NCBI GenBank assembly: GCA_964435035.1
Contig: CAYSXR010000001.1
Coordinates: forward strand, 144,192 to 208,191
Reading direction: 5' to 3'
Length of the DNA: 64,000 nt
Origin: an uncultured Gammaproteobacteria bacterium
Lineage (GTDB): Bacteria > Patescibacteriota > Patescibacteriia > Magasanikbacterales > UBA922
This document shows positions 15,354-63,808 of the stretch, one piece after another. The notes beneath the pieces are model-generated. The model did no database searches, had not been told where the DNA came from, and was given only the letters and a program-made list of their open reading frames with translations. Numbering within the stretch: position 1 is the stretch's first letter; each line of letters opens with the position of its first letter. Made by a program: the position numbers and the translations under genes.

Positions 15354-15430
15354 TTTACATTCCAAGTGAAGAGGCGTCTGCCTTTTTACCTCTGGGATAT
15401 AACAAGATCCTTAGGTTATAGGTGTAACTC

Positions 15431-15772
15431 ATGGCTCGTTTGATCGACATGTACTTCACTGCCCCCGTGGTCAACCACTGGACTACCTTCTACGAGAAGG
15501 CGTTCATGGGGGAGCTGATCATGGTTTACATCCATGGGGTGGGACGTCGCTGGGTACTTCTCCAGGACTTTCGCAGTAACGAGGAGGCTAAGAAACTTGA
15601 GTTCAGGGTACAGATTGTGCCGGAGCCGGGTAAAAAAAACCGGGACTCGATACCAAACAGCTGGTTTACTGGCACCTACTCCTGGGAGACCAACGATGGT
15701 TACCTCAAACTGCCGTCGGTTATGCGGCCATTGCCGTCGGTTATCCTCTCAAGCTGGATCAACCACGCCTGA
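15431..15772 (+). CDS. hypothetical protein in a mildly GC-elevated islet
   Basis: 113-aa ORF, GC visibly higher than flanks; no recognisable family; a longer overlapping ORF in another frame makes the call uncertain. Confidence 0.3.
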   Translation: MARLIDMYFTAPVVNHWTTFYEKAFMGELIMVYIHGVGRRWVLLQDFRSNEEAKKLEFRVQIVPEPGKKNRDSIPNSWFTGTYSWETNDGYLKLPSVMRPLPSVILSSWINHA

Positions 15773-15975
15773 GGCAATAGCACACCCGACGCGTGCACAA
15801 GATTTGTTCCCACATGGGCACAAAATCGCGCACGCGTCGGGAACAATCTACCCTATACCATGATTGGTATGGGGTTTTTGTTTACAAAAATATTTTTTAC
15901 ACGTAAAATATCTCACGTTGATTCTGCAATACATAGTGCAGAAATGGCTCCATCGAAAAAGAGGGGGTTCGCAAA

Positions 15976-16392
15976 ATGGTCTACGATAAAAAATACTCGG
16001 TCGTGCACGAATGGCTGAGACGATTCAATCTGCATGAGGTGGAAGGTCTCCTGGAGCTCTACGTTGAGAAGCCCGCTCATACCTCTATGGATATCAAAAA
16101 AGCACACCCGAAGACGTACGGCACTATCTATGGAAGGACCCCGCTGTCCCAGTGGTGGTACCGGTGCTTCGAGTGCGATCCGAATCTCAGGTACGAGATG
16201 GATCTGTACCTCTCGTCTGGAGGAGACACTGCAGTACTCGTCTACTTCGAGGGGGTCGGTGGTGGAAATCCTCCAGCACATCGGATGATCACCTTCACCT
16301 TCGAGGGTCTCCTGATCAAGAGTACGAAGACTGAAGATGTGGACGATCATAGTTCACACATTCGTGGTGCAATCAACCCACGAGCCAACTGA
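15976..16392 (+). CDS. hypothetical protein, possibly NTF2/SnoaL-like fold
   Basis: 138 aa; SD-like AGAGGGGG upstream; N-terminal VVHEWLRRFNLHEVEGLLELYVEKPAHTS resembles NTF2-like/ketosteroid-isomerase-like starts; GC higher than host average. Confidence 0.35.
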   Translation: MVYDKKYSVVHEWLRRFNLHEVEGLLELYVEKPAHTSMDIKKAHPKTYGTIYGRTPLSQWWYRCFECDPNLRYEMDLYLSSGGDTAVLVYFEGVGGGNPPAHRMITFTFEGLLIKSTKTEDVDDHSSHIRGAINPRAN

Positions 16393-16537
16393 GTCTCACG
16401 GGGGGCACACTGACAAAAATAGCCCCCCAACCTGTACATATTGGTATATAGCAAGTATCTACAGGTTGGGAGGGAAAATGGGCTATGTTGTGATGCATGT
16501 AGTGCTACCCGATGCGTATCGTATTGATTAGATACAA

Positions 16538-16566
16538 TAAAACTCTGAGTAATTTCAGAGTTTTAT
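16538..16566. terminator. bidirectional hairpin terminator AAAACTCTGAgtaatttTCAGAGTTTT
   Basis: perfect 10-bp stem flanked by A-run and T-run, sits between the islet ORFs and the tRNA-Lys 3' end. Confidence 0.55.
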
Positions 16567-16574
16567 TGTTTTTG

Positions 16575-16647
16575 TGACCCCGGTGGGGATCGAACCCACG
16601 ACCATTGGCTTAAAAGGCCACTGCTCTACCAGCTGAGCTACAGGGTC
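16575..16647 (-). tRNA. tRNA-Lys (anticodon TTT)
   Basis: hand-folded cloverleaf on minus strand: acceptor GACCCTG/CGGGGTC, D-arm GCTC..GAGC, anticodon loop CTTTTAA, T-arm GTGGG-TTCGATC-CCCAC, discriminator A; 73 nt. Confidence 0.8.
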
Positions 16648-42070: not shown

Positions 42071-42185
42071 TAAATTCAAAACTTAAATCTCAAAATTCAA
42101 AACTGGAATTCAAAATTCCGGGAGATGAAAGTTTTAAGATTTAAGTTATAGTTTTGAACTTTGAGTTTTACATTTTGAATTTAAT
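42071..42185. repeat. AT-rich palindromic repeat (caaaactt/aagttttg family), full-length copy
   Basis: about 115-bp imperfect inverted repeat; related shorter copies at 51671-51726 and 61795-61845. Confidence 0.6.
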
Positions 42186-43393: not shown

Positions 43394-46240
43394 GTGTGTA
43401 TGGTAGCGATATCCCCCGAACAATCAGTACCGCAAGAATCACGAAAGAAAAAAACACCTGATACGGTAAAAATAGAGAAATATAGTGAGGTGTGGGAGCA
43501 TGCAAAAAATCTGGAGGGTAAAATAAAAAAACTCAAAGAACATGCAATCGATGCGGATGAAATCGGAGAAATAGAAGGTATTCTCAAAGATGCAAAAGGA
43601 TATTTTTCTAGATTTGGAGAGAAAAAAGATAAAGGCAGAAGTGTTGCTCAGCTTGAAGAGAGGCGTAAGGCTGCAGTAGAAAAACTTACTGACCTTAATC
43701 GGCGCATGGTGTCGATGCTTGAAAAATTAGGACAACCAATTCCTAATACTCTTTTGTCGTACAAAGACAGTGGATTTGTTGATATTGTAAAAGAATCTAA
43801 TAAAGAAGGGTTGTCTGAAGAAAAAAAAGAAGAAGTGTCTGAAGTTGTGGGTGCTCATATAATTCAGCCCCCTGAAAATTATTCTAAAGAGTCATTGGGT
43901 GATTCAGAAATTGGTGGTGTGAATAGTATCGAGGCGCCAGAGAAGAAGGAAGAAGTGTTGGTTTCTGCCGAAGAGTCGCCTGTAAATGTACGAGAGGAAT
44001 CATCCTCACCTGAAACACCAATAGAAGATGTTATCAAGATTTCTTCAGGAGGAAAAACATATGAATTCGGCTGGCACGAACAGGTGGTTTACACTACTGC
44101 AAAGGGTAAGCAGCTTGAGTGTATTGTGCTTGGAAAATCAAATGATGAGAATAAGCCGGGGCTTATTTTGAAAGATCTTGAAAAAGGAAAAGTATTTGCT
44201 CTTGGTGCAGATGCGGTTGCAAAACGGGTACATGTTTCTGATGGTGAAATAGTTTCTCCACGTGTAGAAAATAATAAGGCCGATTCTGGTCAATCTGCTG
44301 AAGGTGAAGATATTGATAGAGAAGAAAAAGCTGCTCTTGAAAAAATGAAAAAAGACCAGAGGGAAGTAGAAGAGAAAAAAGCTCAAGAATTAAGTGAATT
44401 ATTAGCACAAGCTGGAAAGTCTGCCGAAGATGACACTTCATTTGTACACACAAGCACAGATGAGAGGGGAAGTTTCGATCAGAAGATGGTTGATAAACTT
44501 GTAGCTGATGGATCGATTGAAAAAATTAACACGTTATTGAAAAATAAATCCGAGGTGTGGGTACAGGAAGATGGTAAATGGTATCAGGGTGTAGTGCAAG
44601 ATATTACCGGAGCACAGGTGGGTGTTACTGTAGGAGAGGAGGGTCGAGAGAAAAAATATTTCTATGTGGATGCTGAAGAATTTTTGGGCATGCAGGATCG
44701 AGCGAAAAAATTGTTGAAATACAAAAAAGAATTAGAGCTTCCCTCGGTGGTGGTGGACACCGAATTCCTCGCTCGTCCAGATACGATCACCAAAGGTGAA
44801 ATTTTTACTCCTCCGACCGAGAGAAAGACCGTACCTGACGTGCCTCTAGTGAGTATTGATACTCCATTGCCGGTACGAGAACGAAAAACCTACCCAGAAG
44901 TTTCAGAAAAAAAAGCAATACAGATGATTCAATCAGTCGCTGAAGAATTTGAAAAAACATGGAAAGGAATGCGCATGATGACGACAGAAAAACAAAAGAC
45001 CGGATGGCTCCAGAGTAAGGAAGTTGAACGAGAGATGACGGTGACAGAAAAAAAGGAGCAATTAGAAGCGTGGCTTGATATGGTGGAGCAGGCATTTGAT
45101 TCACTCGACAAGCAAAAAGATGGGACACACATGGAAAAACCAGTACTCATGTGGCATCAGGCACAGGCATTAATTCGCGCATTAGAAAATGAACTTCGGT
45201 ATACAGAAGAAACGAATAAAAGTGAAGAGTGGGATCACGCACTTGAGGCTTTTAGTAGTATAATTAATGAAAGAAGCACACGTCTCAAGGAAAAAAAGAA
45301 AGGGTCATTGATTGCACCGTGGGCCATGAAAACGACACTTGCTGCCTTGGGTGCTTTTGCAATCGGAAATGCAACAAACAATCGAATAGAAGATGTGGCT
45401 GCAGTGAGTGAACGATATATGGAAGCAGGTGAAAAAAAATATGAATTACCCAGAGAAGAACATACGGGTGATGCACAGAGAAATATGCTAGATTTTGTAA
45501 TTAATATGAATCGGATGATAAACGAGCCCACACTTTCGATAACACCCGTTGCAATTGATGCTCGACTTACTCCACAGATCAAGGATAAAATATCAGGGAA
45601 AGTTCCGGGTTTGGCTGGTGCAGAAATAGCATCTGATGGAAAATCAGTTACATTGACTTTTGATAATAACCAAACAGTTGAAAGTCGTCCTGAAAAAATA
45701 CAAAAGTCGGGTCGCGATAGTTGGAAACTGAAGACAGCTGAGAAAAAGGGTCCGGAGTATGGCGAACAAATGTTGAGAGAATTAAGGAAAGTATTGGGTG
45801 AAGTAAAGCAAGAGTTTCCTGATATGTTTCGTGGACCAGAATCATCTTCCAAGCAAAAGAGAGTAGTAAGAACAGTAGTACAGGCCGAAAAGAAATTACG
45901 AGAAGCAGAGGTAGTAATACCGAGAAGTGGTGAGGCGAGAAGACAGTTGGAACAAGTAAAACAGGTGTTGGAACAAGTAAAACCAGGACTCGAATCTATT
46001 TCAAAAGAGATTGTAGATGAGATTAAGGCAGAGGATCTCGAATTGCCACAGGATGTATTTGTGCGTTTTAGTCGAGAGGTTACGTTTGATCCAAAGGCAG
46101 ATGCTCTATTTGAGGAATGGGGAAATGCACGAAATTCTCTCAAAGCAGCACAGGAAGCAGGAGATCAAGAGGGGGTAAAGAAAAGTAACGAGGAGTTGCG
46201 TAAGGTTATTGAAAAAATAACGAAAGAGTATAGTAAATAA
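43394..46240 (+). CDS. hypothetical large charged/coiled-coil protein (948 aa)
   Basis: long uninterrupted ORF with Lys/Glu-rich low-complexity segments; host-like codon usage. Confidence 0.5.
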   Translation: MCMVAISPEQSVPQESRKKKTPDTVKIEKYSEVWEHAKNLEGKIKKLKEHAIDADEIGEIEGILKDAKGYFSRFGEKKDKGRSVAQLEERRKAAVEKLTDLNRRMVSMLEKLGQPIPNTLLSYKDSGFVDIVKESNKEGLSEEKKEEVSEVVGAHIIQPPENYSKESLGDSEIGGVNSIEAPEKKEEVLVSAEESPVNVREESSSPETPIEDVIKISSGGKTYEFGWHEQVVYTTAKGKQLECIVLGKSNDENKPGLILKDLEKGKVFALGADAVAKRVHVSDGEIVSPRVENNKADSGQSAEGEDIDREEKAALEKMKKDQREVEEKKAQELSELLAQAGKSAEDDTSFVHTSTDERGSFDQKMVDKLVADGSIEKINTLLKNKSEVWVQEDGKWYQGVVQDITGAQVGVTVGEEGREKKYFYVDAEEFLGMQDRAKKLLKYKKELELPSVVVDTEFLARPDTITKGEIFTPPTERKTVPDVPLVSIDTPLPVRERKTYPEVSEKKAIQMIQSVAEEFEKTWKGMRMMTTEKQKTGWLQSKEVEREMTVTEKKEQLEAWLDMVEQAFDSLDKQKDGTHMEKPVLMWHQAQALIRALENELRYTEETNKSEEWDHALEAFSSIINERSTRLKEKKKGSLIAPWAMKTTLAALGAFAIGNATNNRIEDVAAVSERYMEAGEKKYELPREEHTGDAQRNMLDFVINMNRMINEPTLSITPVAIDARLTPQIKDKISGKVPGLAGAEIASDGKSVTLTFDNNQTVESRPEKIQKSGRDSWKLKTAEKKGPEYGEQMLRELRKVLGEVKQEFPDMFRGPESSSKQKRVVRTVVQAEKKLREAEVVIPRSGEARRQLEQVKQVLEQVKPGLESISKEIVDEIKAEDLELPQDVFVRFSREVTFDPKADALFEEWGNARNSLKAAQEAGDQEGVKKSNEELRKVIEKITKEYSK

Positions 46241-46416
46241 CATTTTGATATAGAGAAGAAAAATCACTGATAGCAGTCGGTGATTTTTTGTTTTTTTAAG
46301 GTGTTTGGGCTAGAAATGTGCTAAAAAGTATGAGAGTAGTCAAAAGGGGCTACACCCTTTACTTTTTGTCAAAATTTGCATAAAGTACGTTAATGCTTAT
46401 TGTGGCAGGGGTATAC

Positions 46417-46445
46417 TTGACAAAAAGGTATAAATATGCTATAGT
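46417..46445 (+). promoter_or_regulatory. extended -10 promoter TTGACA-N17-(TGc)TATAGT
   Basis: exact -35, 17-bp spacer with TG at -15/-14, -10 TATAGT; AT-rich host-like context immediately upstream of the first high-GC gene. Confidence 0.55.
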
Positions 46446-46655
46446 ACTGCGTTATTTCAAAAGCCCTACATAGGTCTTCGAAATAGCAATCCAGGGGCCC
46501 CATCAGAGAGGATATGTGTCCCTTCTGATGGAGTCCCTGGTCTAGGAGCTCCCACTGTGGCCCGTTCGGGCAATAGTGAGAGCCTTAGGCTCATTACAAT
46601 CGAAGAAGCTAGAACACGTGCCCCTATGAAAGGGGTGTAAACGAGGAGATCAGAA

Positions 46656-48104
46656 ATGATTGACCGCAACAAGAAGAGCAACAAGAAGAGCACGCCCGTG
46701 AAGGGCGGCGCTGCGGCGAACCCGCAGGCGATGGCAACCGTGGCGTCTCACAAGGACGACACGGCTCAGATCGATGTGGTGGTCGAGACCAATCCCGAGG
46801 CCGACAAGGTCGAGGGTGAGGTCAAGGCCGATGAAGAGGCGAAGGTCGAAGAGACCGTCGCCACCGCCCCGACCGAGAACGTCGAGAAGAGCGAGGAGCC
46901 GGCCGTTGTGGTCGACCCCGAGCCCGAGCTCGAGCAGAAGCGGAACTTCCGTAAGGAAGACCTCCGCCTCCGGTACAACGACAACCCGCAGGTGCTGCTC
47001 ACCTCCGCGGATCTCAGCGAAGAGGACAAGGTCCTCATCGGCGAGATCGCGAGCGAGCAGAACCAGGTCGTCCGCGACTATGCCGCGCTGGCACAGGAGC
47101 TGACCGACGAGAAGGACCAGCTCGAGCAGAAGCTCGACGCGACCAACTCCAAGCTGGGGAACGTCACCAACCTCATCGCGACCACGGTCAAGGAGACCGT
47201 GGGACAGGTGGACAAGGAGACGTCGGCCTTGATCGAAGGTCTGAAGATCGAGATCGAGGGCGTCATCGGCAAGGGTAACGGCGTGAAGAACGCCGTCACG
47301 AAGATCGGGGACGATGTCAACAAGGACATCGGCTCGCTCAAGGGTCAGGTCAACGCCAACGCCAAGTCGGTCAACGACAAGGTCGATGGGATGGCCGCGA
47401 TGCTCGGGAAGATCGACGAGAAGATCTCCGAGATCAAGTCCCCGCCGCCCCCGCAGCAGCCGCCGGCTCAGTCCAGCACCACCCCGTCCTCCGGATCCTC
47501 CGGGTGGCCGTGGGTCGTGGCCGTGGGCATCTTGCTCGCGGCCGTGATCGCGGTCTTCCTCCTGAACAAGGATGTGAAGATCGAGGTCCAGGTGCAGCAG
47601 CCGGCGGTGAACACCGTGAAGGGTGTGGTGCCGCCGGTGGTGGACAACGCTCTCGGGGTGACCTCGCAGCAGGTGACCCCGGGTGGACCGGGGAATCCGA
47701 TCGTGCCCACGGTGGTCGGTGCCACGTCCGAGGATCCCTGCAAGGGGAAGGTCGGTGGGGAGCTCGGGTCGTGTGTCCTTCAGCTGGAGAAGTTCCGGCC
47801 GAAGGGGTTCACTGATGCGCACTGGAACACGGTCGTCGAGACCTTCCAGAACGTCATCATGGTCCCCTTGAGCGTTCCGTTCAAGGACATCAAGCACCAC
47901 GACAAGGCCATCGAGCACAACATGAGGAAAGACGCGGCACTGCAGGCGTGCGTCGACGCATACGTCTTGAAGACGGATGATGTCGAGTCGAACGTCCGGT
48001 GTCAGCGGGCGGTCGATTGTCTGTTCACTTCGGTGGACGAGGCAGCACAGTGCTACATGACGCATACGCGCTCGATCACGGGCGTTTTGGTCACTGTCAA
48101 CTGA
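46656..48104 (+). CDS. high-GC island gene A: membrane protein with cytoplasmic acidic/coiled-coil N-domain, one TM, extracytoplasmic C-domain with 6 Cys
   Basis: GC about 63-66% with strong GC3 bias; SD GAGGAG; TM WPWVVAVGILLAAVIAVFLL preceded by PPPPQQPP linker. Confidence 0.65.
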   Translation: MIDRNKKSNKKSTPVKGGAAANPQAMATVASHKDDTAQIDVVVETNPEADKVEGEVKADEEAKVEETVATAPTENVEKSEEPAVVVDPEPELEQKRNFRKEDLRLRYNDNPQVLLTSADLSEEDKVLIGEIASEQNQVVRDYAALAQELTDEKDQLEQKLDATNSKLGNVTNLIATTVKETVGQVDKETSALIEGLKIEIEGVIGKGNGVKNAVTKIGDDVNKDIGSLKGQVNANAKSVNDKVDGMAAMLGKIDEKISEIKSPPPPQQPPAQSSTTPSSGSSGWPWVVAVGILLAAVIAVFLLNKDVKIEVQVQQPAVNTVKGVVPPVVDNALGVTSQQVTPGGPGNPIVPTVVGATSEDPCKGKVGGELGSCVLQLEKFRPKGFTDAHWNTVVETFQNVIMVPLSVPFKDIKHHDKAIEHNMRKDAALQACVDAYVLKTDDVESNVRCQRAVDCLFTSVDEAAQCYMTHTRSITGVLVTVN

Positions 48105-48159
48105 ACCTCAACCCAACTAGTCCGACCTCCCTCGGGAGGTCGGACACAGGAGAACAGAC

Positions 48160-49095
48160 ATGAAGCAGCTCGTCGCGAAGATCGTGGTTTATTACATCGT
48201 ACTTCTCTCGGCGTCGGCCTTCGGCTCGACGCCGAACCCCGGTGACCAGTTCGACCTGATCCAGGGAGGGATCCCGGCGAAGGTCGAGGTCACGCAGCAG
48301 GAGATCAAGGCGATGGACACGTCCATCGACCAGCTCCTGAAGCGCACCGGCGGTCTCCTCAAGAAGGACGCCGAGCTCAAGAAGGAGCTCGAGGACCTCA
48401 AGAAGGAGCTCGAGGACCTCAAGAGCAAGCTCGACAAGGTGGTGAAGCCGGGTGATCTCACGGTCATCCGAGTGGATCTGGGAAGGTTGTGGACGCAAGT
48501 CAACAACCATGGACAGCGCCTCACCGAGCTCGAGCAGGACGTCGAAGATCTGAAGAGGAGCGACAAGGCTCAGGACGATCGACTCGGTGATCACGACCAG
48601 AAAATCGAGGACATCAACAAGCGCCTCGATCGAGGTCTCGGAGTGAAGTTCGGCATCGGAGCCTATGGCGTCTACGGGACGCAAGGCTCGATCAACGGTG
48701 GAGCTTCGGCTCGGCTGAGGATCCCGCTGTCCGGTGGATGGCAAGCGATCGTCAATGGCGGAGTCGGCGGCAACCATCAGGGAGCTTCAGGATTCGCCGA
48801 TCTGTCGGTCGGCTACCAGTTCGCGAGCGGCATCTACCTGGGGGCAACCCTCGGTATCGACGCCAACTGCGACGGTATGTGCACCAGGCTCCTCACGGAG
48901 ATCTGGGGCGCAGGTCCCGACATCGGCTACCTGTCCGACGATGGACTCTTCATCCGGGCTCGTGTGCTCTTCGGGAGCGAGTGGATCAAGGGTCCGACGA
49001 TGCAGATCGAGTACCCGGATCGTACGGTCTTCAAGACCGACGAGTCCCGGGAGTTCGGCATCTCGGCTTTGATCCAGCTCGGTCACGAGTTCTAG
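48160..49095 (+). CDS. high-GC island gene B: secreted coiled-coil protein with Gly/aromatic-rich C-terminal domain ending in Phe (OMP beta-barrel-like)
   Basis: signal peptide; KKELEDLKKELEDLKSKLDK repeats; C-terminal alternating hydrophobic pattern and terminal ...LGHEF; followed by GGGGAGTgtctctACTCCCC hairpin. Confidence 0.6.
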   Translation: MKQLVAKIVVYYIVLLSASAFGSTPNPGDQFDLIQGGIPAKVEVTQQEIKAMDTSIDQLLKRTGGLLKKDAELKKELEDLKKELEDLKSKLDKVVKPGDLTVIRVDLGRLWTQVNNHGQRLTELEQDVEDLKRSDKAQDDRLGDHDQKIEDINKRLDRGLGVKFGIGAYGVYGTQGSINGGASARLRIPLSGGWQAIVNGGVGGNHQGASGFADLSVGYQFASGIYLGATLGIDANCDGMCTRLLTEIWGAGPDIGYLSDDGLFIRARVLFGSEWIKGPTMQIEYPDRTVFKTDESREFGISALIQLGHEF

Positions 49096-49346
49096 ACTTC
49101 AAGATTCGGGGAGTGTCTCTACTCCCCGGACCCCTCACCTCGCCGACTTCAAGGCAGAAGGGATAAGACAATGAGACAAACACTCGAGTAAACGGCGTGG
49201 TCGCACAACGCGGCCCCCAATACTGGAGCATGGGCGATATTTCGAAAGAAATGTCGCCCCTCGCACAGCGTATATCAGTCTCTGGTATGCGATGACGAGA
49301 AAAGCATCTCACGTAAATCCCGACTAAATCGGGACACGTGACAAGC

Positions 49347-49375
49347 TTGACAAACGAGAGTATTTATGCTATACT
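49347..49375 (+). promoter_or_regulatory. extended -10 promoter TTGACA-N17-(TGc)TATACT
   Basis: same cassette as at 46417 and 63780; lies in an AT-rich spacer inside the high-GC block, about 310 nt upstream of gene C start. Confidence 0.55.
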
Positions 49376-49685
49376 AAGCTGTTACAAAATAAAGAAGTGC
49401 CATGGGAAATCTCGATGTAGTCGGGGTATCTATGGTAGATCGTCATGCACTGCATGGTGGTCCATTGAACCTTACAATATATGCGAAATGTATAAAAAGC
49501 TTGAAAGGCTAGAAAGGCCGGAAAGGCTTGAAATGCTAGAGAACGTATCTTGTGACGTGAAGAAAGAAATTTTCAATAAGAATTTTTTCTTAGCGTCACG
49601 AGGAGTTCTCAGGCGTGAAAACTTCTCGTGTGGTACACGAGGAAGCAACAACAAAACCCCGATTGAATCGGGGAGGAGAAGAGTC

Positions 49686-51452
49686 ATGAAGAAGTTCAAC
49701 AAGTTCCTGTTCGTCGTCATGTTCATCTCGTTCGTCGCGGCCATCACGGGCTGCGCCGATCACGGTGGCGAGACGGTCGTCGTCAAGGGTGACGATGGGG
49801 AGAGCGTCAAGCTCTGCCCCGAGGAGCATCAGTGCTCCTCGGCCGAGTTCTGCAACTCGCAGGGTCTCTGCGTCATCCCCGGTGCCAACGGCACCAACGG
49901 CGAGGACTTCGAGCGATGCTCGAATAGTCGTGGTGACTGTGTCGGTAACGAGCTCTGCAACTCGCAGGGCGTGTGTGTGCTCGAAGGTCCGCAAGGGCCG
50001 GCGGGGGAGTCCTGTACCGTGTCGACGAAGGTCGACGGGTGCTTCTTCCTCTACTGTGGCGCAAGCGTCACGGAGATCTGCGACGGCGAGGACGGTGTGT
50101 CCTGCACGGTCGCAGGGCAGCCGGACGGCAGCGCTCAGGTCGAGTGCTCGGACGGTTCGTTCGCGACCATCCTCCCCGGACAAGACGGCGAGGACGGTCT
50201 CAACGGCACGAGCTGCACGGCCTCGACGGTCAAAGGTTGCCTCGTGGTGACCTGCGGAACGCAGTCGACGGAGATCTGCCCGGAGGATCTTCCGGATCCC
50301 GAGCCGGTCGACGGCTGCCAGAAGGACTCGGACTGCACGGACGGCAGCGAGTGCACCAACGACATCTGCGATCTCAACACCGGCACCTGCCGGTACGTGT
50401 CGCAGGTGTGTGATGACGGCGTCGCCTGCACCAACGACTGGTGTGACACGAACGGCTACTGCCGTTCGACCGCGGACAATGATCAGTGCAGCGGCGGCGA
50501 CTTCTGCTTGCCGACCGGTTACTGGTTTTGGTCCTCGGCGGTGGGTTCTGAGGAACTCGCTGACGGAGGCTGTTACGAGTGCCGCTGGGACTCTGATTGT
50601 GCCGACGGCGACGCGTGTACGGTCGACACCTGCGACGCGGGTGTTTGCAAGAAGGAAACGCGCGAGTGCCCCACGGGTGCGACGTGCGTCGAGTACTCGA
50701 GCAACTACTACGACGACTCGGAGTGGAACTACGTGTGCCAGGACAATCCGTCGTGCAGCAACAACAGCCAGTGCGACGACGGCAAGTACTGGACGACGGA
50801 TGCGTGCGTGGCCGGGGAGTGTGTCTACACCCAGGTGTCGTGCAACGACAACAACGCATGCACCGTGGACACGGTGAACTCGAGTGGGCAGTGCACCTAC
50901 GCCCAGATCTCGTGCGACGATGGCAAATCCGCCACGGTCGACACGTGCTCTGCGAATACGGGGTGCGTACACACGCCGGTGAACACCGGCTGCGAGCACG
51001 ATCTCGATTGCGATGACGTCGACGGTACGACCACGGACCTGTGCGAGGACAACGGGAGCTGTACACATACTCCCAATGCCCAGTGCAAGTCCCTGACGGT
51101 CAAGGTCGGCTGGGCCATCCTGTGGTCGCGCGGTCCCGAGATCGGAACCACCAATGTCCCGATGGGCAACTGGCGTAGCTGCGAGGAAGACGAGGCGGAG
51201 AACTGCCGTACCATGTCGTGGTGCGGTGACGACATCGTGGAGTTCAATGTTCAGCAGATGCCGAACGTGGCAGGTGCCGACTGGCTCGTGAAGAACGAGA
51301 AAGGCGACAGCCCTTGCACGTCGAACGCAGATGCGACCTTGAACTACACGCCCGCTGATCTCTTCGTCGGGGCGACGCCGGTGCAGAAGGGCTGTTCGCT
51401 CTTCTGCGACCCGAACGGGTACACCAACTACACCTGCGATTCCGCGGAGTAG
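49686..51452 (+). CDS. high-GC island gene C: Cys-rich lipoprotein (about 589 aa, many CxxDxCD / CDDG repeats)
   Basis: ORF track extends to 49338 but that stretch is AT-rich leader containing the promoter; GGAGGAG SD before ATG at 49686; lipobox-like FVAAITGC then ADHGG; more than 60 Cys. Confidence 0.6.
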   Translation: MKKFNKFLFVVMFISFVAAITGCADHGGETVVVKGDDGESVKLCPEEHQCSSAEFCNSQGLCVIPGANGTNGEDFERCSNSRGDCVGNELCNSQGVCVLEGPQGPAGESCTVSTKVDGCFFLYCGASVTEICDGEDGVSCTVAGQPDGSAQVECSDGSFATILPGQDGEDGLNGTSCTASTVKGCLVVTCGTQSTEICPEDLPDPEPVDGCQKDSDCTDGSECTNDICDLNTGTCRYVSQVCDDGVACTNDWCDTNGYCRSTADNDQCSGGDFCLPTGYWFWSSAVGSEELADGGCYECRWDSDCADGDACTVDTCDAGVCKKETRECPTGATCVEYSSNYYDDSEWNYVCQDNPSCSNNSQCDDGKYWTTDACVAGECVYTQVSCNDNNACTVDTVNSSGQCTYAQISCDDGKSATVDTCSANTGCVHTPVNTGCEHDLDCDDVDGTTTDLCEDNGSCTHTPNAQCKSLTVKVGWAILWSRGPEIGTTNVPMGNWRSCEEDEAENCRTMSWCGDDIVEFNVQQMPNVAGADWLVKNEKGDSPCTSNADATLNYTPADLFVGATPVQKGCSLFCDPNGYTNYTCDSAE

Positions 51453-51670
51453 TCGTACCCACAAACATTTCGTGTAAAAGCTTTGAGTAGCCTAGCTACC
51501 AGACTCAAAGTTCAATCAACGTAGCGGGAGGGGGCACAAGCGTTCATCTGAATTGCGCAAGCGATTCAGTGACGAGTGCCTCCCTCCCATTCCAACATAT
51601 CTTTATCAAAATTCAGAACTCAGATTACAGTGAGAGACTAGTGAGTATTGGTAGAGAGATGTGGGGATGG

Positions 51671-51726
51671 AAAATTCAAAACTTAAAACTTAAAACTCAA
51701 AATTTAGATTTAAGTTGTGAGTTATT
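51671..51726. repeat. AT-rich palindromic repeat (short copy) inside high-GC island
   Basis: AAAATTCAAAACTTAAAACTTAAAACTCAAAA + TTTAGATTTAAGTTGTGAGTT; matches arms of the 42071-42185 copy. Confidence 0.55.
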
Positions 51727-51794
51727 ACAAACCCTTTCCATCATTATGATGGTTTCAATTCCCCTCAACCGCGACGACAGAAATGTCACGCGCG

Positions 51795-51821
51795 GAAAAA
51801 ACCCGCGCATGCGGGTTTTTT
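51795..51821. terminator. bidirectional hairpin terminator AAAAAACCCGCGCATGCGGGTTTTTT
   Basis: perfect GC stem flanked by A6 and T6. Confidence 0.6.
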
Positions 51822-51913
51822 AAATTCCATTACCTCGGGTATATCGTATAATGATGGTATATCTATGGTAGAGGAATTCTACACGCCAGTTCACAAAAAC
51901 CAGGAGGGGACAC

Positions 51914-52651
51914 ATGTTGGGTATGACGTTTCGTTTGTTTGTTTTCTGTCTCACCGTGTTCACCGCCGCATGCATCGAGGATATGCGGCGGGAGGAAGCG
52001 TCCATGGTCCAGGTCGATACGTCGACTGGCATCATGGATATGGTGGAGGAAGTCAAAGACGTACCAGATTCACGGGTCCGTGATCGGTATGATATCGAAT
52101 TTCCTCCTACAGCCGACGAGTGTGTCGTCGATGAATTCATCGCAGAGGGAAGCCCTTGCGATGATGGCGATGCATGCACGATCGATGTCTGTATCCAGGG
52201 CATGTGTCGTAATCGAGCTATCGACTGCGACGACGGAAATCCCTGGACGGATGACGAGTGCATCGTCGACACTGGGGCGTGCTCCAGTGTACATCGGGTG
52301 ACTCATTTCACCGTTCGCGCGGAGCGTCCGGGAAAGGTGAAGCTTTGGTATGGGAATCACACCGAGCCAGAGACCTATCCCATGAACTCGAGCTTCGAGA
52401 TCCAGAAGATGGATCTCTGCGTCGAGAACCGTGTGCTCACGCTCGCGGTAGAGGACGAAGAGTTCCCGGGAACCTACTGGGGTTGTAACCCTGGCCTTCC
52501 TTCGAAGAGGGAACTCGCAGTCGAGATCGACGGGGTGGACACGCCCGGTTATTTCGCTGCGGATCTCGGATGGGAGGTGCCCAACTCTGCGTGTGGTGGG
52601 AAGGGAGAGGGTGACCTCTACTTCTTGCGGGCGCAACTCGCATGTGACTGA
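51914..52651 (+). CDS. high-GC island gene D: Cys-rich lipoprotein (245 aa), paralog of C and E
   Basis: signal + lipobox-like FTAAC; CDDGDACTIDVCIQGMCRNRAIDCDDGNPWTDDEC repeats; C-terminal CNPGLPSK domain shared with gene E. Confidence 0.6.
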   Translation: MLGMTFRLFVFCLTVFTAACIEDMRREEASMVQVDTSTGIMDMVEEVKDVPDSRVRDRYDIEFPPTADECVVDEFIAEGSPCDDGDACTIDVCIQGMCRNRAIDCDDGNPWTDDECIVDTGACSSVHRVTHFTVRAERPGKVKLWYGNHTEPETYPMNSSFEIQKMDLCVENRVLTLAVEDEEFPGTYWGCNPGLPSKRELAVEIDGVDTPGYFAADLGWEVPNSACGGKGEGDLYFLRAQLACD

Positions 52652-52998
52652 TGACCGGGTGTCTCGCGAAGGATAGGATGGCGTATACGCTATGCTGTCC
52701 ACCTTCGCGAGCACCACTAATTCAACAAATAGAATTATATTGACAAAATACTCTTTTCCTGATATGTTGATACGATTGTATCTACGCATATCGGATATCT
52801 AGAGAGGTATCTGGTATGCGCCACTGGAGAATCATTCTCAAGTGTGTATGTTCATTATAATCACATAAGTTTTTTGTTCAGCTAGAGGATGGGTGCAGAT
52901 AGAGGTATATGTAACATATCTTGTATCGATAGCCACCCTCTAGCTGAGACACAGTGTCACTGCTGGAGTTCAACGGCCTCACAACGGAGGAAGGCCAA

Positions 52999-55041
52999 AT
53001 GCGTCTGAAGAACAACAACAACCGGATGTTCATCATCACGGTTGCCCTCGCCATGGGGTTCATGGCGGCGTGCACGGAACACGGCGGCGACGAGCCGATC
53101 GTGGTCGTGATGAAGGCGGACCTCGACCTCGACGAGGTCCCCAACAACGTCGACAACTGCCCGGGGGACAACAACCCCGATCAGTTGGACACCGACGGCG
53201 ACGGCATGGGCGATGCGTGCGACAACGACGTCGACGGCGACGGGGTCTTGAACCCCGCCGACAACTGCCCCGACAACTTCAACCCCGACCAGGCGAACCT
53301 CGACAAGGTCCTGGCCGACAGCGGCAACGTCACCGTGGTCGCGGATCTCTTCGGAGACGTCTGCGACAACGACGACGACGGCGACGTGGTCTGCGACCCC
53401 TGGCTCGGCGTGGACGGGTGGGAAGAATTCCATCCCGGTCAGGGCGAGACGTGTCAGGGCGAGGACAACTGTCCCGACGTCGCCAACGCCGACCAGGCGA
53501 ACCTCGACAAGGACTTCGAGGGCGACGTCTGCGACAACGACGTCGACGGCGACGGCGACCTCAACGGCGCAGACAACTGCCCGCTCGTGACCAACGCCGA
53601 CCAGGCAAACCTGGATCGGGACGACTGGGGCGACGCCTGCGACACCGACGACGACAACGACAGCTTCTGCGACGAAGCTGCCCCCGTCTCGATGCCGCGA
53701 AATGCGCCCGCGATGCCCCTCTGCGAGGGCGAGGACAACTGCCCCCGCTTCAAGAACGCGGGACAGGAAGACATGGACGAGGACGGCATGGGCGACGTCT
53801 GCGACGACGACTGCGACGGGGACCTCTACCCCGAAGCGTCGCCCTGGGATTTCCCCAACCTGTCGTGCTTCGTGTATTGCAATCCGGAAGGTCCGGGAAC
53901 CGAGTGCGACGACGCGAACACGTGCACCACGGACACCTGCAACGGGCAGGGCGTTTGCGAGTACGTGTTCACGCAGTCCGAGACGTGCGAATGCGTCTTG
54001 GACTCCGACTGCGAGCCGACCGACGCCTGCGTCACCGAGATGGCGTGCGTGGAAAACACGTGCGTCGAGACCGGATGGAAGGTCCTGACCGACGGGGACA
54101 ACTGCACCATCGACACCTGTGATCCCTCGACCGGCGTGGTCACCCACGTCGAGAAGGACTGTGGTGGGGACCTCTGCGGAGGAGGCCTCTCGTGTAACCG
54201 CATGACCGGAGAGTGCAGCACACCCGTGCCGCAAATTCCGATCAACGACAGCAACGCCTGCACCACCGACGCGTGCGATCCCGAGACCGGCGTGGTCACC
54301 CACGTCGCGATCGTCTGCGACGATGGGAACGCATGCAACGGCACCGAGACGTGCAACCCGGCTTCCGGGTGCGTCGCGGGTACGCCGCTCACGTGCGATG
54401 ACGGAAGCGTCTGCACGATCGACAGTTGTTCGGCAAACACCTGCCAACACGTGGCGGTGACGACGAACGACAACAACATGTGCACCACCGACACCTGCGA
54501 TCCCGAGATGGGGGTGCAGCACACGGCGGTGGTGTGCAACGACGTGAACTCCAACACCACCGACACCTGCGATCCGGCGACGGGTTGCGTGCACACGCCG
54601 ACGGGGAACTGCACGGTCAACGCGGATTGCAACGACAGCAATCCCCTGACCTACGACACCTGCGTCGCGCTCGTCTGCCAACATGTGGAAGGTGTCCGCG
54701 TGCAGGTCTCGTCGACCGACACGTCGGAGACCTGGCAGGTCAATTTCTACTACAACGGTACGACGATCTCCGGCAACCTGCCCTTCGACGGGACCTTGCC
54801 GAAGACGCTCGCATGCAGCTGGGGCGCCGACATCGCCGTCAACCGTCCGAGCACGAACTTGTTCTTGGACTGCAACCCGGGGTTCCCCTCGAAGTCCACC
54901 CTGACCGTCATGGTCAATGGTGTCACGAAGGCGAACGACTTCCAGGTTCGTTCGCAGGCATGCGACGGCGCTCCGCCGGGCAACCTGTGGCTCTCCGACG
55001 AGAGCGGTGACAACGACCTGGGATGCCCCGCGGCACCCTAG
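52999..55041 (+). CDS. high-GC island gene E: lipoprotein with ~7 thrombospondin type-3 (Ca-binding) repeats and ~8 CTxDxCD Cys-rich repeats
   Basis: SD GGAGG then ATG at 52999 (ORF track starts 52954); lipobox-like FMAAC followed by TEHGGDEP (compare gene C ADHGGETV); TSP3 consensus DxDxDGxxDxxDNCPxxxNxDQ repeated from about 53150 to 53830; C-terminal CNPGFPSK domain. Confidence 0.65.
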   Translation: MRLKNNNNRMFIITVALAMGFMAACTEHGGDEPIVVVMKADLDLDEVPNNVDNCPGDNNPDQLDTDGDGMGDACDNDVDGDGVLNPADNCPDNFNPDQANLDKVLADSGNVTVVADLFGDVCDNDDDGDVVCDPWLGVDGWEEFHPGQGETCQGEDNCPDVANADQANLDKDFEGDVCDNDVDGDGDLNGADNCPLVTNADQANLDRDDWGDACDTDDDNDSFCDEAAPVSMPRNAPAMPLCEGEDNCPRFKNAGQEDMDEDGMGDVCDDDCDGDLYPEASPWDFPNLSCFVYCNPEGPGTECDDANTCTTDTCNGQGVCEYVFTQSETCECVLDSDCEPTDACVTEMACVENTCVETGWKVLTDGDNCTIDTCDPSTGVVTHVEKDCGGDLCGGGLSCNRMTGECSTPVPQIPINDSNACTTDACDPETGVVTHVAIVCDDGNACNGTETCNPASGCVAGTPLTCDDGSVCTIDSCSANTCQHVAVTTNDNNMCTTDTCDPEMGVQHTAVVCNDVNSNTTDTCDPATGCVHTPTGNCTVNADCNDSNPLTYDTCVALVCQHVEGVRVQVSSTDTSETWQVNFYYNGTTISGNLPFDGTLPKTLACSWGADIAVNRPSTNLFLDCNPGFPSKSTLTVMVNGVTKANDFQVRSQACDGAPPGNLWLSDESGDNDLGCPAAP

Positions 55042-55226
55042 AACTTCTCCTGCGACGACTGCAGGAGCATCTCGAAGTGAACGTGTGATTCGCTTCTGTA
55101 GGTGAATGTTCGAAGACAATCACACAAACCGGGGGAAGTGCGCTCGCTACTACAGCGACCGCTTCCTCCCCTCTACTCTGAATTCAAGTACGATCTTGAG
55201 AATAGAGTAGAAGGGCACGCTAGAAT

Positions 55227-55248
55227 AACCGCACTATGCGGTTTTTTT
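55227..55248 (+). terminator. rho-independent terminator (CCGCActaTGCGG + T7)
   Basis: hairpin followed by TTTTTTT at the right edge of the high-GC block. Confidence 0.55.
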
Positions 55249-55253
55249 GTTAT

Positions 55254-55355
55254 GTCATTCCGAGCGAGTGCACCCGAGCCGAGGAATCTTTCCTGTATAA
55301 GACCATGTAAGAAAGATTCCTCGACTCCCTCGGAGACTCGGTCGCTCGGAATGAC
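55254..55355. repeat. hairpin repeat element copy A (termini GTCATTCCGAGCGA ... TCGCTCGGAATGAC)
   Basis: perfect 14-bp terminal inverted repeats plus inner GAGGAATCTTTCCTG/CAGGAAAGATTCCTC stem; two further copies at 61105-61246 and 61583-61719. Confidence 0.7.
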
Positions 55356-55416
55356 TATCGTCACTTTTTCTTTTTTTAATTTCCCCCTTGCTTGTGATAT
55401 ACTTATCTAGAATTTT

Positions 55417-56493
55417 ATGAAACAAATCCATGTCGTGCATATCATTCCCAAGCTTGGTTTCGGTGGAGCCGAGCGTTTTGTGGTTGAACTTGCCAAGCAT
55501 ATGCCATCCAAGAATATCCGCCAGTCAATTATTACCCTGTGGGATGATCGTCCGCTGATGAAGGAATTACCTGATTCAGTTTCGTGCACCGTGTTTCCTT
55601 TTGATCGTATCGGATATATACATCGGATTCCAAAGCTTACAAAAATGCTTCGAGAAATGCAGGCTGATATAGTGCATACACATCTTTTTAGTGCAGATCT
55701 ATGGGGGAGGCTTGCAGCAAAGTCACTGGGGATTCCGGTAGTTACGACTGAACATAATATCAATGTAGGAGAATCGTGGCTCTGGGGAAGAATCAAACGT
55801 GCAATGAAAAAATATTCTCGCGTGTACACCGCACCATCAAGTGCTGTTCGAGAGTATATGAAAACGGCGTATGGGATTGCAGTTGAAAATACTCGAGTGA
55901 TTATGCATGGTATCGAATTAGAACATTTTATCAAAATAAAACCTGCAGCTTTTGCCCCACCATACAAGCTACTCATGATGGGAAGAATGGTAGAACAAAA
56001 AGGGCATTCAATTGCGCTTGATGCATTACAAAAAATTAGAGATATTTCGTGTACGCTTACGATGGTGGGTGATGGAGAAAAAAAAGAATCGCTCATGCAC
56101 TATGCAAAAGAATTAGGAGTAAGTGATCGAGTGATATGGAAATCAGCCACCGAGAATGTGTCGAGAGAATATGCAACAGCAGACATCGTACTCGTTCCAT
56201 CACGATGGGAAGGATTGGGAATTGTGGTATTTGAAGCGCTCGCAAGTGAGAGATTGGTAATCGGATCTCGGGTCGGAGGAATTCCTGAAATTATTATTGA
56301 TGGAGAAAATGGTCGATTGATTCCCGTAGAAAATAGCGACGCACTTGCAGATGCAATTCGGGCAAGTGTGAAAAATCAATTAGCTTCAAAAAAAATTGCA
56401 AAGCAGGGTCGTGTCTGGGTAAAAGAACAAGGAAGTGTTGCACGTATGACTGAAGCATATGAGGCACTGTATCAGGAAGTAGTAAAAAAATAA
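55417..56493 (+). CDS. glycosyltransferase family 4
   Basis: 358 aa; N-terminal HIIPKLGFGGAERFV and C-terminal E-x7-E region SRWEGLGIVVFEALASERLVIGSRVGGIPEII. Confidence 0.75.
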   Translation: MKQIHVVHIIPKLGFGGAERFVVELAKHMPSKNIRQSIITLWDDRPLMKELPDSVSCTVFPFDRIGYIHRIPKLTKMLREMQADIVHTHLFSADLWGRLAAKSLGIPVVTTEHNINVGESWLWGRIKRAMKKYSRVYTAPSSAVREYMKTAYGIAVENTRVIMHGIELEHFIKIKPAAFAPPYKLLMMGRMVEQKGHSIALDALQKIRDISCTLTMVGDGEKKESLMHYAKELGVSDRVIWKSATENVSREYATADIVLVPSRWEGLGIVVFEALASERLVIGSRVGGIPEIIIDGENGRLIPVENSDALADAIRASVKNQLASKKIAKQGRVWVKEQGSVARMTEAYEALYQEVVKK

Positions 56494-61074: not shown

Positions 61075-61104
61075 AGTAAAAGCTTAAAACGCAAAAGTAT
61101 TAAT

Positions 61105-61246
61105 GTGTCATCCCGAGGGAGGAGTGCATCCGACGATTCGAGGGATCTTTCCTGCATAAGGCTGATTAGGAAAAATGTATTTAAAGCTTAGTAAGGACTT
61201 GGTAGGAAAGATTCCTCGACTCGGGTGCACTCGCTCGGAATGACAC
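61105..61246. repeat. hairpin repeat element copy B (degenerate left arm, intact right arm ...TCGCTCGGAATGAC)
   Basis: right arm CTCGACTCGGGTGCACTCGCTCGGAATGAC nearly identical to reverse complement of copy A left arm; lies 42 bp upstream of GIY-YIG gene. Confidence 0.6.
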
Positions 61247-61287
61247 ATTAAGTAATTGTATTGGGTGGTAAAAAGTAAGGGGGTAGT

Positions 61288-61566
61288 ATGAAAACATACT
61301 ATGTGTATATTATGTCGAGCATTAATCAAACACTCTATGTCGGTATAACCAATAATTTATTCCGTAGAGTTTTTGAACATAGGATGAAACTCAATGAAGG
61401 TTTTACAGAAAAATATCAGATATATAAATTAGTATATGCTGAATACTATACAAATGTGCAGGAGGCAATACGTCGTGAAAAACAAATCAAAAAGTGGCGT
61501 CGAGAGAAGAAAATCAAATTGATTGAAAAAGATAATCCCGATTGGGTGGATCTCGCAAGGAATTAA
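61288..61566 (+). CDS. GIY-YIG nuclease family small protein
   Basis: 92 aa; MKTYYVYIMSSINQTLYVGITNNLFRRVFEH = GIY...YVG motif; paralogous in style to 38375..38647. Confidence 0.75.
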   Translation: MKTYYVYIMSSINQTLYVGITNNLFRRVFEHRMKLNEGFTEKYQIYKLVYAEYYTNVQEAIRREKQIKKWRREKKIKLIEKDNPDWVDLARN

Positions 61567-61582
61567 TGGTGTGATTGGTATT

Positions 61583-61719
61583 GTCATTCCGAGCGACCGA
61601 GTCTTCGAGGGAGTCGAGGAATCTTTCCTGTATAGTATTCTGTAAAAAAATGTAACTATAGTTTGGTAAATACTTTGCAGGAAAGATTTCTCGACTCGGG
61701 TGCACTCACTCGAAATGAC
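61583..61719. repeat. hairpin repeat element copy C (GTCATTCCGAGCGACCGAG... / ...CACTCGAAATGAC)
   Basis: left arm matches reverse complement of copy A right arm almost exactly; starts 17 bp after GIY-YIG stop. Confidence 0.65.
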
Positions 61720-61794
61720 AGTGAATAGCTCGGAATCAGGTCACAGAAGTTGCAAATATGCTTGGATCAAGTATCATTACCTTGAAGAATAAGA

Positions 61795-61845
61795 AGTTTT
61801 AAATTTTTAGTTTCAGTTTTGAACTTTGAGTTTTAAGTTTTGAGA
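61795..61845. repeat. AT-rich palindromic repeat, half copy
   Basis: AGTTTTAAATTTTTAGTTTCAGTTTTGAACTTTGAGTTTTAAGTTTTGAG nearly identical to right arm of 42071-42185 copy. Confidence 0.55.
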
Positions 61846-63779: not shown

Positions 63780-63808
63780 TTGACAAAAGTATATAGATGT
63801 GGTATAGT
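63780..63808 (+). promoter_or_regulatory. extended -10 promoter TTGACA-N17-(TGg)TATAGT
   Basis: same cassette as at 46417/49347, about 45 nt upstream of the GT4 start. Confidence 0.55.

Follow-up and report, generated by a model that had tools for sequence, protein, structure and literature searches.

Two genes of a surface-protein cluster in a chromosome of Candidatus Magasanikbacteria type, here called A and C, are preceded by long 5' leaders that are very probably real, selected RNA structures. That both leaders are long and structured had been proposed in an earlier note on this DNA, and this has held up: both fold with z-scores of about -7, and their hairpins are kept in related genomes. 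The reading we favour, at a probability of about 0.45, is that the leaders act in cis as constitutive elements that would stabilise or process the mRNA. They do not stand alone. At least five conserved structured untranslated modules are predicted in the cluster (the A leader, the B 3'UTR, the C leader, the C 3'UTR and the E leader), and together the five bracket every ORF of A-B, C, D and E.

The window, by which we mean the whole 64-kb stretch of DNA that was analysed, is a piece of chromosome of ~40% G+C that carries tmRNA, SmpB, IF3, Phe-tRNA synthetase and other housekeeping genes. In homologue searches its nearest relative is a Candidatus Magasanikbacteria MAG (CPR/Patescibacteria) with which it shares gene order, and the host appears to be a Candidatus Magasanikbacteria-like CPR bacterium. 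The cluster, or island, occupies 46656-55041 and comprises five genes of about 56-64% G+C, separated by gaps in which G+C falls to 42-53% (Table 1). The leaders precede genes for exported proteins, as the earlier note had it: signal peptides can be read at the starts of B, C, D and E. Pfam scans identified CTDC-type cysteine-rich repeats in C, D and E, and thrombospondin type 3 repeats in E as well. No recognised S-layer family was found among the cluster proteins, whose types are cysteine-rich repeat lipoproteins and coiled-coil proteins, and none of the 28 window proteins scanned was a reverse transcriptase or another diversification protein.

Table 1. Positions of the genes, promoters and structured untranslated elements of the cluster, in window coordinates.
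Feature	Position	Strand	Remarks
Promoter P_A	46417-46445	+	TTGACA-17-TATAGT with TG extension; 11/12 sigma-70 consensus match
Gene A 5' leader	46446-46655	+	~205 nt
A leader P1	46451-46487	+	at predicted 5' end; begins 6 nt past -10
A leader P2	46492-46539	+	long hairpin; 20 pairs
A leader P3	46540-46590	+	long hairpin, GUUC-capped tip 46559-46572; 20 pairs
A leader linker	46591-46619	+	invariant, unpaired; CUCAUUACAA
A leader P4	46620-46636	+	short hairpin
A leader SD GAGGAG	46643-46648	+	free of all conserved helices; ATG 46656
Gene A	46656-48104	+	one internal membrane helix, from translation
Gene B	48160-49095	+	signal peptide at start, from translation
B 3'UTR / B-C intercistronic	49096-49312	+	directly after gene B stop; five hairpins
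31-nt hairpin insertion	49313-49343	+	upstream of -35; contains GTG 49338 of ORF track
Promoter P_C	49347-49375	+	TTGACA-17-TATACT with TG extension; 11/12 sigma-70 consensus match
Gene C 5' leader	49376-49685	+	~305 nt; A-rich unpaired 5' end first
C leader H1	49398-49437	+	consensus fold
C leader H2	49438-49462	+	consensus fold; conserved unpaired GAACCUUACAAU segment follows
C leader 9-nt tandem repeat	49495-49540	+	strain-specific
C leader H3	49549-49602	+	sequence near-invariant; 22 pairs
C leader H4	49625-49641	+	hairpin string CTCGTGTGGTACACGAG
C leader H5	49657-49673	+	hairpin string CCCCGATTGAATCGGGG, overlaps SD
C leader SD GGAGGAG	49672-49678	+	ATG at 49686
Gene C	49686-51452	+	lipoprotein-type signal peptide, from translation
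C 3'UTR	51453-51821	+	hairpin, long covarying hairpin, long-range helix, terminator-like GC hairpin
Gene D	51914-52651	+	lipoprotein-type signal peptide, from translation
D 3' hairpin	about 52660-52712	+	three-lineage consensus fold; within 52652-52998
Promoter P_E	52740-52768	+	upstream of gene E; one mismatch to TTGACA-N14-TGnTATAnT
Gene E 5' leader	52769-52998	+	ATG 52999; three-lineage consensus fold
Gene E	52999-55041	+	lipoprotein-type signal peptide; start as called on Logan contig
Intrinsic terminator-like hairpin and T run	55227-55250	+	closes gene cluster; terminator scan

Homologues of genes A and B are rare, with four matches each among 5.8 billion proteins (42-91% identity), and a search with gene C returned generic cysteine-rich repeat proteins and no orthologues. 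Homologous loci were taken from the contigs of the gene A and B homologues and from an exact-motif scan of GTDB genomes, which found three Magasanikbacteria-like MAGs. These loci are L002, whose flank is at strain-level identity to the window; lineage 2, represented equally by L004, L006 and L010; L003, which equals L008; L005; L007; and L009. The comparison thus has a depth of 4-6 closely related lineages whose genomes are about 90% identical, and some of the conservation therefore reflects common ancestry. Wherever the sequence suffices, the architecture is the same, with GC-rich genes, AT-richer gaps and the same promoters before A, C and E. Exact scans for two conserved motifs in JGI metagenome contigs returned 0 matches, though the JGI contig L007 carries both, and a scan for the conserved motifs in IMG/VR viral contigs likewise returned 0. 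The modules so far appear confined to one genus-level clade. An origin from phage was considered and rejected, both intergenic regions being without a blastn match in phage records. Two of the loci, L009 (CAZMEW010000013.1) and L010 (CAYUTO010000002.1), carry the Magasanikbacteria-type locus under the title 'uncultured Gammaproteobacteria bacterium'; L010 overlaps L006, on which syntenic flanking genes are found, and both titles are probably taxonomic mislabels.

Conservation across these loci is concentrated outside the coding sequences of the island. Promoters and leaders are kept in five to six Candidatus Magasanikbacteria lineages, and the proteins downstream are only 42-91% identical. Between the window and lineage 2, DNA identity is 88-93% in host genes, 47-66% in ordinary intergenic DNA and 30-80% in island coding sequence; the A leader stands at 87%, the B 3'UTR (segment 49150-49299) at 94% and the C leader at about 60%.

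The cluster is predicted from its sequence to be transcribed from near-consensus promoters. P_A and P_C show 0 mismatches to the extended -10 pattern TTGACA-N14-TGnTATAnT, and in all lineages recovered the modules of promoter and leader stand at the same three sites. For instance, the P_A module is also found in L002, L004/L010 and L009, and P_C is kept in L002, L010/L004, L007 and L009. A fourth perfect promoter of this pattern lies at 63780-63808 before an ordinary host gene, where the leader is only ~43 nt long; the island promoters are therefore host-type, and it is the long leaders that are the exception. The terminator scan found no sense-strand intrinsic terminator in 46446-46655, in 49376-49685 or in the gap from gene B to P_C. 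Terminator-like elements stand in only two places of the cluster, where the C 3'UTR ends and past gene E. The first of these is a GC hairpin followed by a U run (about 51798-51821); it was read from the sequence and the consensus fold, and the terminator scan listed only an antisense site there.

Care must be taken with the start of gene C, which the ORF track places at GTG 49338, within what is here called the leader. In the window no stop interrupts the frame between 49338 and 49686, but the homologous frame contains 4-10 stops in L010, L007 and L009, which rules out a coding N-terminal extension from the GTG. The conserved promoter lies downstream of 49338, and the hairpin insertion that contains this codon is present in the window and L002 only, being missing from L010, L007 and L005. 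At 49686 the composition shifts, and an SD and a lipoprotein signal peptide go with the ATG. The earlier note was thus right to prefer ATG 49686, so 49376-49685 is untranslated.

Both leaders fold far more stably than expected from their composition. The C leader with its start (49376-49700) reaches -109 kcal/mol, against -73.9 +/- 5.0 in dinucleotide shuffles (z -7.0; 0/100 shuffles as good), and its antisense strand -77 (z -3.4). The A leader with its start (46446-46670) reaches -95.9 kcal/mol against -63.0 +/- 4.8 (z -6.9; 0/200 shuffles as good), and its antisense strand -88.7 (z -5.0). The sense strands fold better than the antisense strands, and the structure therefore belongs to the sense RNA. 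When the 64 kb were scanned roughly in 319 windows of 200 nt, that of the A leader was the most structured, and several others from island intergenic regions were in the top 20. Those wholly inside the C leader (49401-49800) fell outside the 25 best, among which only 49201-49400 reaches into this leader, over its first 25 nt. The second most structured segment of the scan was 16401-16600 (z about -10, a rough estimate); the region 15400-16600, of about 45% G+C and without a convincing ORF, adjoins tRNA-Lys and has no Rfam match at gathering score.

In the case of the C leader, the covariation check against homologous loci gave the clearest result. Here the strings to which the earlier note had drawn attention are all where it placed them: GTGACG...CGTCAC at 49552-49599, CTCGTGTGGTACACGAG, CCCCGATTGAATCGGGG and GGAGGAG. 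The alignment consists of four full sequences and one partial sequence. In it 95.3% of cells are paired, against 40-53% in slid controls. Compensatory double changes are seen at nine pairs, against 0-2 when slid, and the covariation score was reached by 0/500 shuffles, statistics that come from related sequences and from a structure derived from them. Despite divergence to 65% column identity, the C leader keeps its helices through compensatory changes. The order of the hairpins is the same when each lineage is folded alone: the freely covarying H1 and H2, the unpaired GAACCUUACAAU, a variable middle, H3, H4 and a hairpin near the SD. The first ~20 nt, which are A-rich, are unpaired with a probability of 0.72-0.96.

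The variable middle holds the GAAAGG-rich stretch (49500-49543) that the earlier note had found peculiar. The stretch is present as described, but its peculiarity is that of a strain-specific 9-nt unit repeated 5.1 times. This insertion is missing from L010, L007 and L009, which are all three of the homologous leaders that cover the stretch, so it lies outside the conserved element. Other features were read from the alignment. SD-like ACGAGGAG motifs that are unused for initiation lie inside the C leader, and a GUG stands 9 nt after the first of them. Frame, length and sequence of the short ORF that follows this GUG all differ among lineages, and frame comparison together with alignment reading found no conserved small ORF or leader peptide in the leaders. 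Finally, CACGAGGAG, which forms the 3' base of H3, has two possible partners: the 5' base of H3, and CUYCUCGUG in the 5' arm of H4. This alternative helix of 7-9 bp, in a 1-2-3-4 arrangement, can form in all four C leaders and is without covariation support.

The A leader is much less divergent, with 86% column identity over six lineages, and the same check yields compatible pairing only. As many as 96.5% of cells are paired, against 36-52% when slid, but a double change is seen at only one pair and the shuffles are not exceeded. The structure therefore fits the alignment and the sequence is constrained, with covariation that lacks statistical significance. On reading the alignment, one position of inner P3 is U-A, C-G and G-C in different lineages, and a C-G pair of P4 becomes G-C in L009. 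The first 10 nt of the leader, whose 5' end is predicted, are paired in all six lineages (unpaired probability 0.03-0.20). CCAGGG and CCCTGG (46491-46540) enclose CCATCAGA and TCTGATGG as previously described, and GAGCCTTAGGCTC (46580-46592) and CCCCTATGAAAGGGG (46621-46635) are also in place. Only GAGCCttaGGCTC needs another interpretation: the sequence is there, but what had been taken for a hairpin is, in the consensus fold, the 3' strand of the long P3 helix.

The remaining modules are of the same character. The B 3'UTR is closed by a long-range helix of 49096-49099 with 49302-49305 and folds with a z-score of -6.7. Of its 68 predicted pairs, 12 carry compensatory changes over six lineages, and the module keeps its pairing by this means. 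It is both better conserved and richer in compensatory pairs than the A or the C leader. The C 3'UTR contains an invariant long-range helix, CCAACAUAUCUUUAUCAA with UUGGUARAGAGAUGUKGG (also written CCAACATATCTTTATCAA with TTGGTARAGAGATGTKGG), and has 94 pairs, 19 of them compensatory. The segment from the D 3' hairpin through P_E and the E leader (52652-52998) has 83 pairs, 18 of them compensatory. For both of these regions the counts come from three lineages and are weak statistics. Searches with blastn and nhmmer found no paralogous copies of the elements in the window, where each is single-copy, and what the A, C and E leaders have in common is only the promoter and the first few bases to be transcribed. 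In the C 3'UTR, a 7-nt tandem repeat (AAAACTT x4) at 51678-51706 is missing from L010, and A-rich repeats resembling it occur in two host intergenic regions, 42072-42182 and 61800-61844.

The coding sequences framed by these modules differ from the host in their codon usage. GC3 is 0.81-0.89 in A, B, C and E and 0.65 in D, against 0.26-0.33 in most host genes (SmpB, 0.45). Genes A-E have A at only 3-11% of third positions, and their first and second positions are near host values. The orthologous clusters of L009 and L010 show the same composition, which is therefore a long-resident, gene-confined inversion of codon usage and not the mark of a recent transfer. The island coding sequences are also hypervariable and mosaic. 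For example, the window and L002 match perfectly (100%) as far as 46553, which lies within P3; from there to about 47200 their identity is 58-84%, lower in gapped parts, and further on it is about 98%, with additional divergent patches. The C-terminal half (44350-46150) of an upstream 948-aa protein is also unusually diverged. Just beyond the island terminator, at 55254-55355, lies a ~100-nt palindromic element; copies of 42-48 nt, 91-98% identical to it, are clustered at 61100-61720 and make it a MITE- or REP-like host repeat.

The leaders belong to no described riboswitch, thermometer or attenuator family. At gathering score, Rfam 15 gave only tmRNA and two tRNAs in the whole window and nothing in either leader, in keeping with the view of the earlier note that no known class could be assigned. 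A permissive scan (E<=10) of 46200-55600 gave only sub-threshold noise of microRNA and snoRNA type in the leaders, on the long hairpin and the SD/start region; the best was mir-4659 on H3, with 27 bits against a gathering score of 92. Three functions that the note had ventured fared poorly. As to a thermometer, the SD-overlapping hairpin CCCCGATTGAATCGGGG is present in the window and L009, and L010 and L007 have a different hairpin there, clear of the SD. The computed unpaired probability of the SD is 0.28-0.78 across leaders without a common pattern, and neither leader has a conserved helix that pairs the SD or start codon as in ROSE or fourU. As to an embedded sRNA, each leader has a promoter but no sense-strand intrinsic terminator, and SD and ATG follow directly. 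As to a riboswitch-like regulator, neither leader matches an Rfam family, has a conserved helix that sequesters the SD or has a terminator between promoter and start codon, a feature that transcription-attenuating riboswitches, T-boxes and leader-peptide attenuators would have. Conserved GGA motifs, as expected of CsrA/RsmA targets, were not found, the GAAAGG repeats (49495-49540) being present only in the window sequence. By contrast, P2, P3 and H3 are all nearly continuous duplexes of at least 20 bp and as such are candidate sites for RNase III cleavage.

How, then, might the leaders work? We favour a stabilising or processing role on the strength of the promoters, the 5' hairpin of the A leader, the 20-25-bp duplexes, the ACGAGGAG motifs and the usable SD. 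These are hallmarks of leaders that stabilise or process the mRNAs of exported proteins made in large amounts. Stable helices at the ends and in the interior would shield the transcripts from 5'-end-dependent and endonucleolytic decay, the long duplexes could offer defined processing sites, and the ribosome binding site would stay usable. Strong promoters combined with stabilising leaders may thus give high and robust expression of exported proteins, like the slpA, ompA and aprE leaders. In S-layer genes, strong promoters act together with a 5'UTR stem-loop that makes the transcript more stable and keeps the ribosome binding site accessible, and the long half-life and high expression of the mRNAs are due to both (PMC10221546). 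Stem-loops at the 5' terminus and SD-like leader elements are established stabilisers, with ompA, papA, aprE and the cryIIIA STAB-SD as examples (works cited in PMC3997798).

Not all features agree with this reading. The ~20 unpaired nucleotides at the 5' end of the C leader do not fit the type with a 5'-terminal hairpin. H3 of the C leader and P2 of the A leader are conserved in sequence beyond what pairing needs, and the unpaired GAACCUUACAAU and CUCAUUACAA are invariant, which suggests specific recognition by a protein, ligand or RNA and not generic protection. Together with the alternative pairing of CACGAGGAG, these features make a conditional switch the main rival, although an unlikely one. 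The leaders would then be a new riboswitch, a protein-binding leader or a ribosome-mediated attenuator, whose alternative pairings would switch the expression of adhesin-like genes upon a signal. Sequence-invariant helices beside freely covarying ones speak for it, as do SD-like motifs in unpaired segments with a GUG close by and the closed multi-stem domain of the B 3'UTR. Weighing against it are the lack of an Rfam match, of a terminator to control and of conserved SD sequestration, the variability of the short ORF after the GUG, and the fact that no compensatory change distinguishes the alternative helix from H3 and H4.

Antitermination, recombination anchors and trans-acting fragments are less likely than a conditional switch. 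Processive antitermination systems sit in the 5' leaders of polysaccharide or horizontally acquired operons. Elements with an antitermination or anti-Rho function, like the ops/JUMPstart, EAR and put RNAs, would help RNA polymerase to read through long GC3-rich, C-rich genes in an AT-rich host. The placement of the leaders before a surface-structure cluster of a composition opposite to that of the host would suit this, as would structured modules at each intercistronic gap and the scarcity of terminator-like elements. However, a search of all Rfam families, EAR RNA included, found no similarity, the 28 window proteins scanned against Pfam include no NusG/RfaH-like or Rho protein, and the idea is purely analogical; we consider it improbable.

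It is also doubtful that the conserved blocks act mainly as DNA, serving as homology anchors for the exchange of hypervariable coding cassettes between strains, with RNA structure as a secondary matter. The break in identity between the window and L002 inside P3 fits such anchors, and so does the far greater divergence of the coding sequences relative to flanks and untranslated blocks. But the fold is much better on the sense strand, many of its G-U pairs being A-C on the opposite strand, and pairing-preserving compensatory changes are not required of recombination anchors. The C leader is also only 65% identical, and so would be a poor anchor. A further reading, to which we give little credence as well, is that the five modules are the fixed scaffold of cassettes for surface-protein diversification. 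Promoter, leader and 3' signals would remain constant and be active as RNA or DNA, for example as exchange boundaries, while the coding sequence is replaced or scrambled, and the inverted codon composition would be a footprint of exchange. The mosaic breakpoint inside the A leader and the juxtaposition of conserved untranslated blocks and hypervariable coding sequence are compatible with this.

Less probable still is a role in trans, in which the regions would give rise to stable RNAs of their own, be they sRNAs or fragments processed from the 5' or 3'UTR. The modules are discrete, closed and very stable domains, the B 3'UTR above all, and their long duplexes could be RNase III sites, but no sense-strand terminator follows the leader hairpins, every element is single-copy in the window, and an SD and start codon directly follow each leader. 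That the C leader is coding from GTG 49338, or that the hairpins are chance features, is scarcely credible, since the open frame of the window is interrupted in the homologues and chance is excluded by the fold z-scores and the covariation.

The structures are of interest beyond this locus. RNA-level gene control in CPR/Patescibacteria is little described, and our literature searches turned up no account of a riboswitch or a structured mRNA leader native to this group. CPR organisms live attached to other microbes, and surface proteins are central to their lifestyle. At this locus, new, comparatively supported RNA structures and consensus promoters go together with the surface-protein genes that evolve fastest in one lineage. 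On the stabiliser reading, the modules would be a natural source of expression parts for organisms in which genetic tools are still missing; as switches or exchange scaffolds, they would reveal ways in which an episymbiont controls or varies its contact proteins. Their present value is limited by the narrow spread, within one genus-level clade. They gain interest in context, as a conserved frame around hypervariable, GC3-inverted coding sequences.

Several known systems invite comparison. The S-layer leaders of Lactobacillus slpA and its relatives also combine a strong promoter with a long structured 5'UTR before a surface-protein gene, and S-layer genes also vary between strains. They share no sequence or model similarity with the leaders described here, which exceed them two- to threefold in length and contain several long helices. 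The slpA product is an abundant exported surface protein; those of this cluster are predicted cysteine-rich repeat lipoproteins and coiled-coil proteins. RNase III processes hairpins between cistrons in the early region of phage T7 and in the lambda N leader, and every intercistronic gap of the cluster likewise has a predicted stable duplex of 20-25 bp; unlike those hairpins, the duplexes here have no recognisable internal-loop signature, and each gap has its own promoter. Riboswitches and thermometers in Rfam share the 5'UTR position, the conserved covarying helices and the conserved unpaired nucleotides, but no covariance model matches and an expression platform (a terminator or a conserved SD-sequestering helix) is missing. 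The ops/JUMPstart element with RfaH, EAR and the HK022 put RNA resemble the modules in that a conserved leader heads a surface-structure cluster of atypical composition; they differ in that no model matches, no partner protein was identified, and the elements here recur at 3'UTRs. The ompA, papA and aprE stem-loops find a counterpart in P1 of the A leader, a hairpin at its predicted 5' end, and the cryIIIA STAB-SD in the ACGAGGAG SD-like motifs of the C leader, which play no part in initiation. Such 5' hairpins and SD-like motifs are known to block 5'-end-dependent decay (works cited in PMC3997798). Unlike them, the C leader has an unpaired 5' end, and elements of 30-130 nt compare with 205-305 nt here, with invariant unpaired segments. 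Although they belong to no described family, the modules seem to resemble known mRNA-stabilising leaders most, and they count as new RNA motifs within a general kind that is already known, from a narrow clade and with a proposed function.
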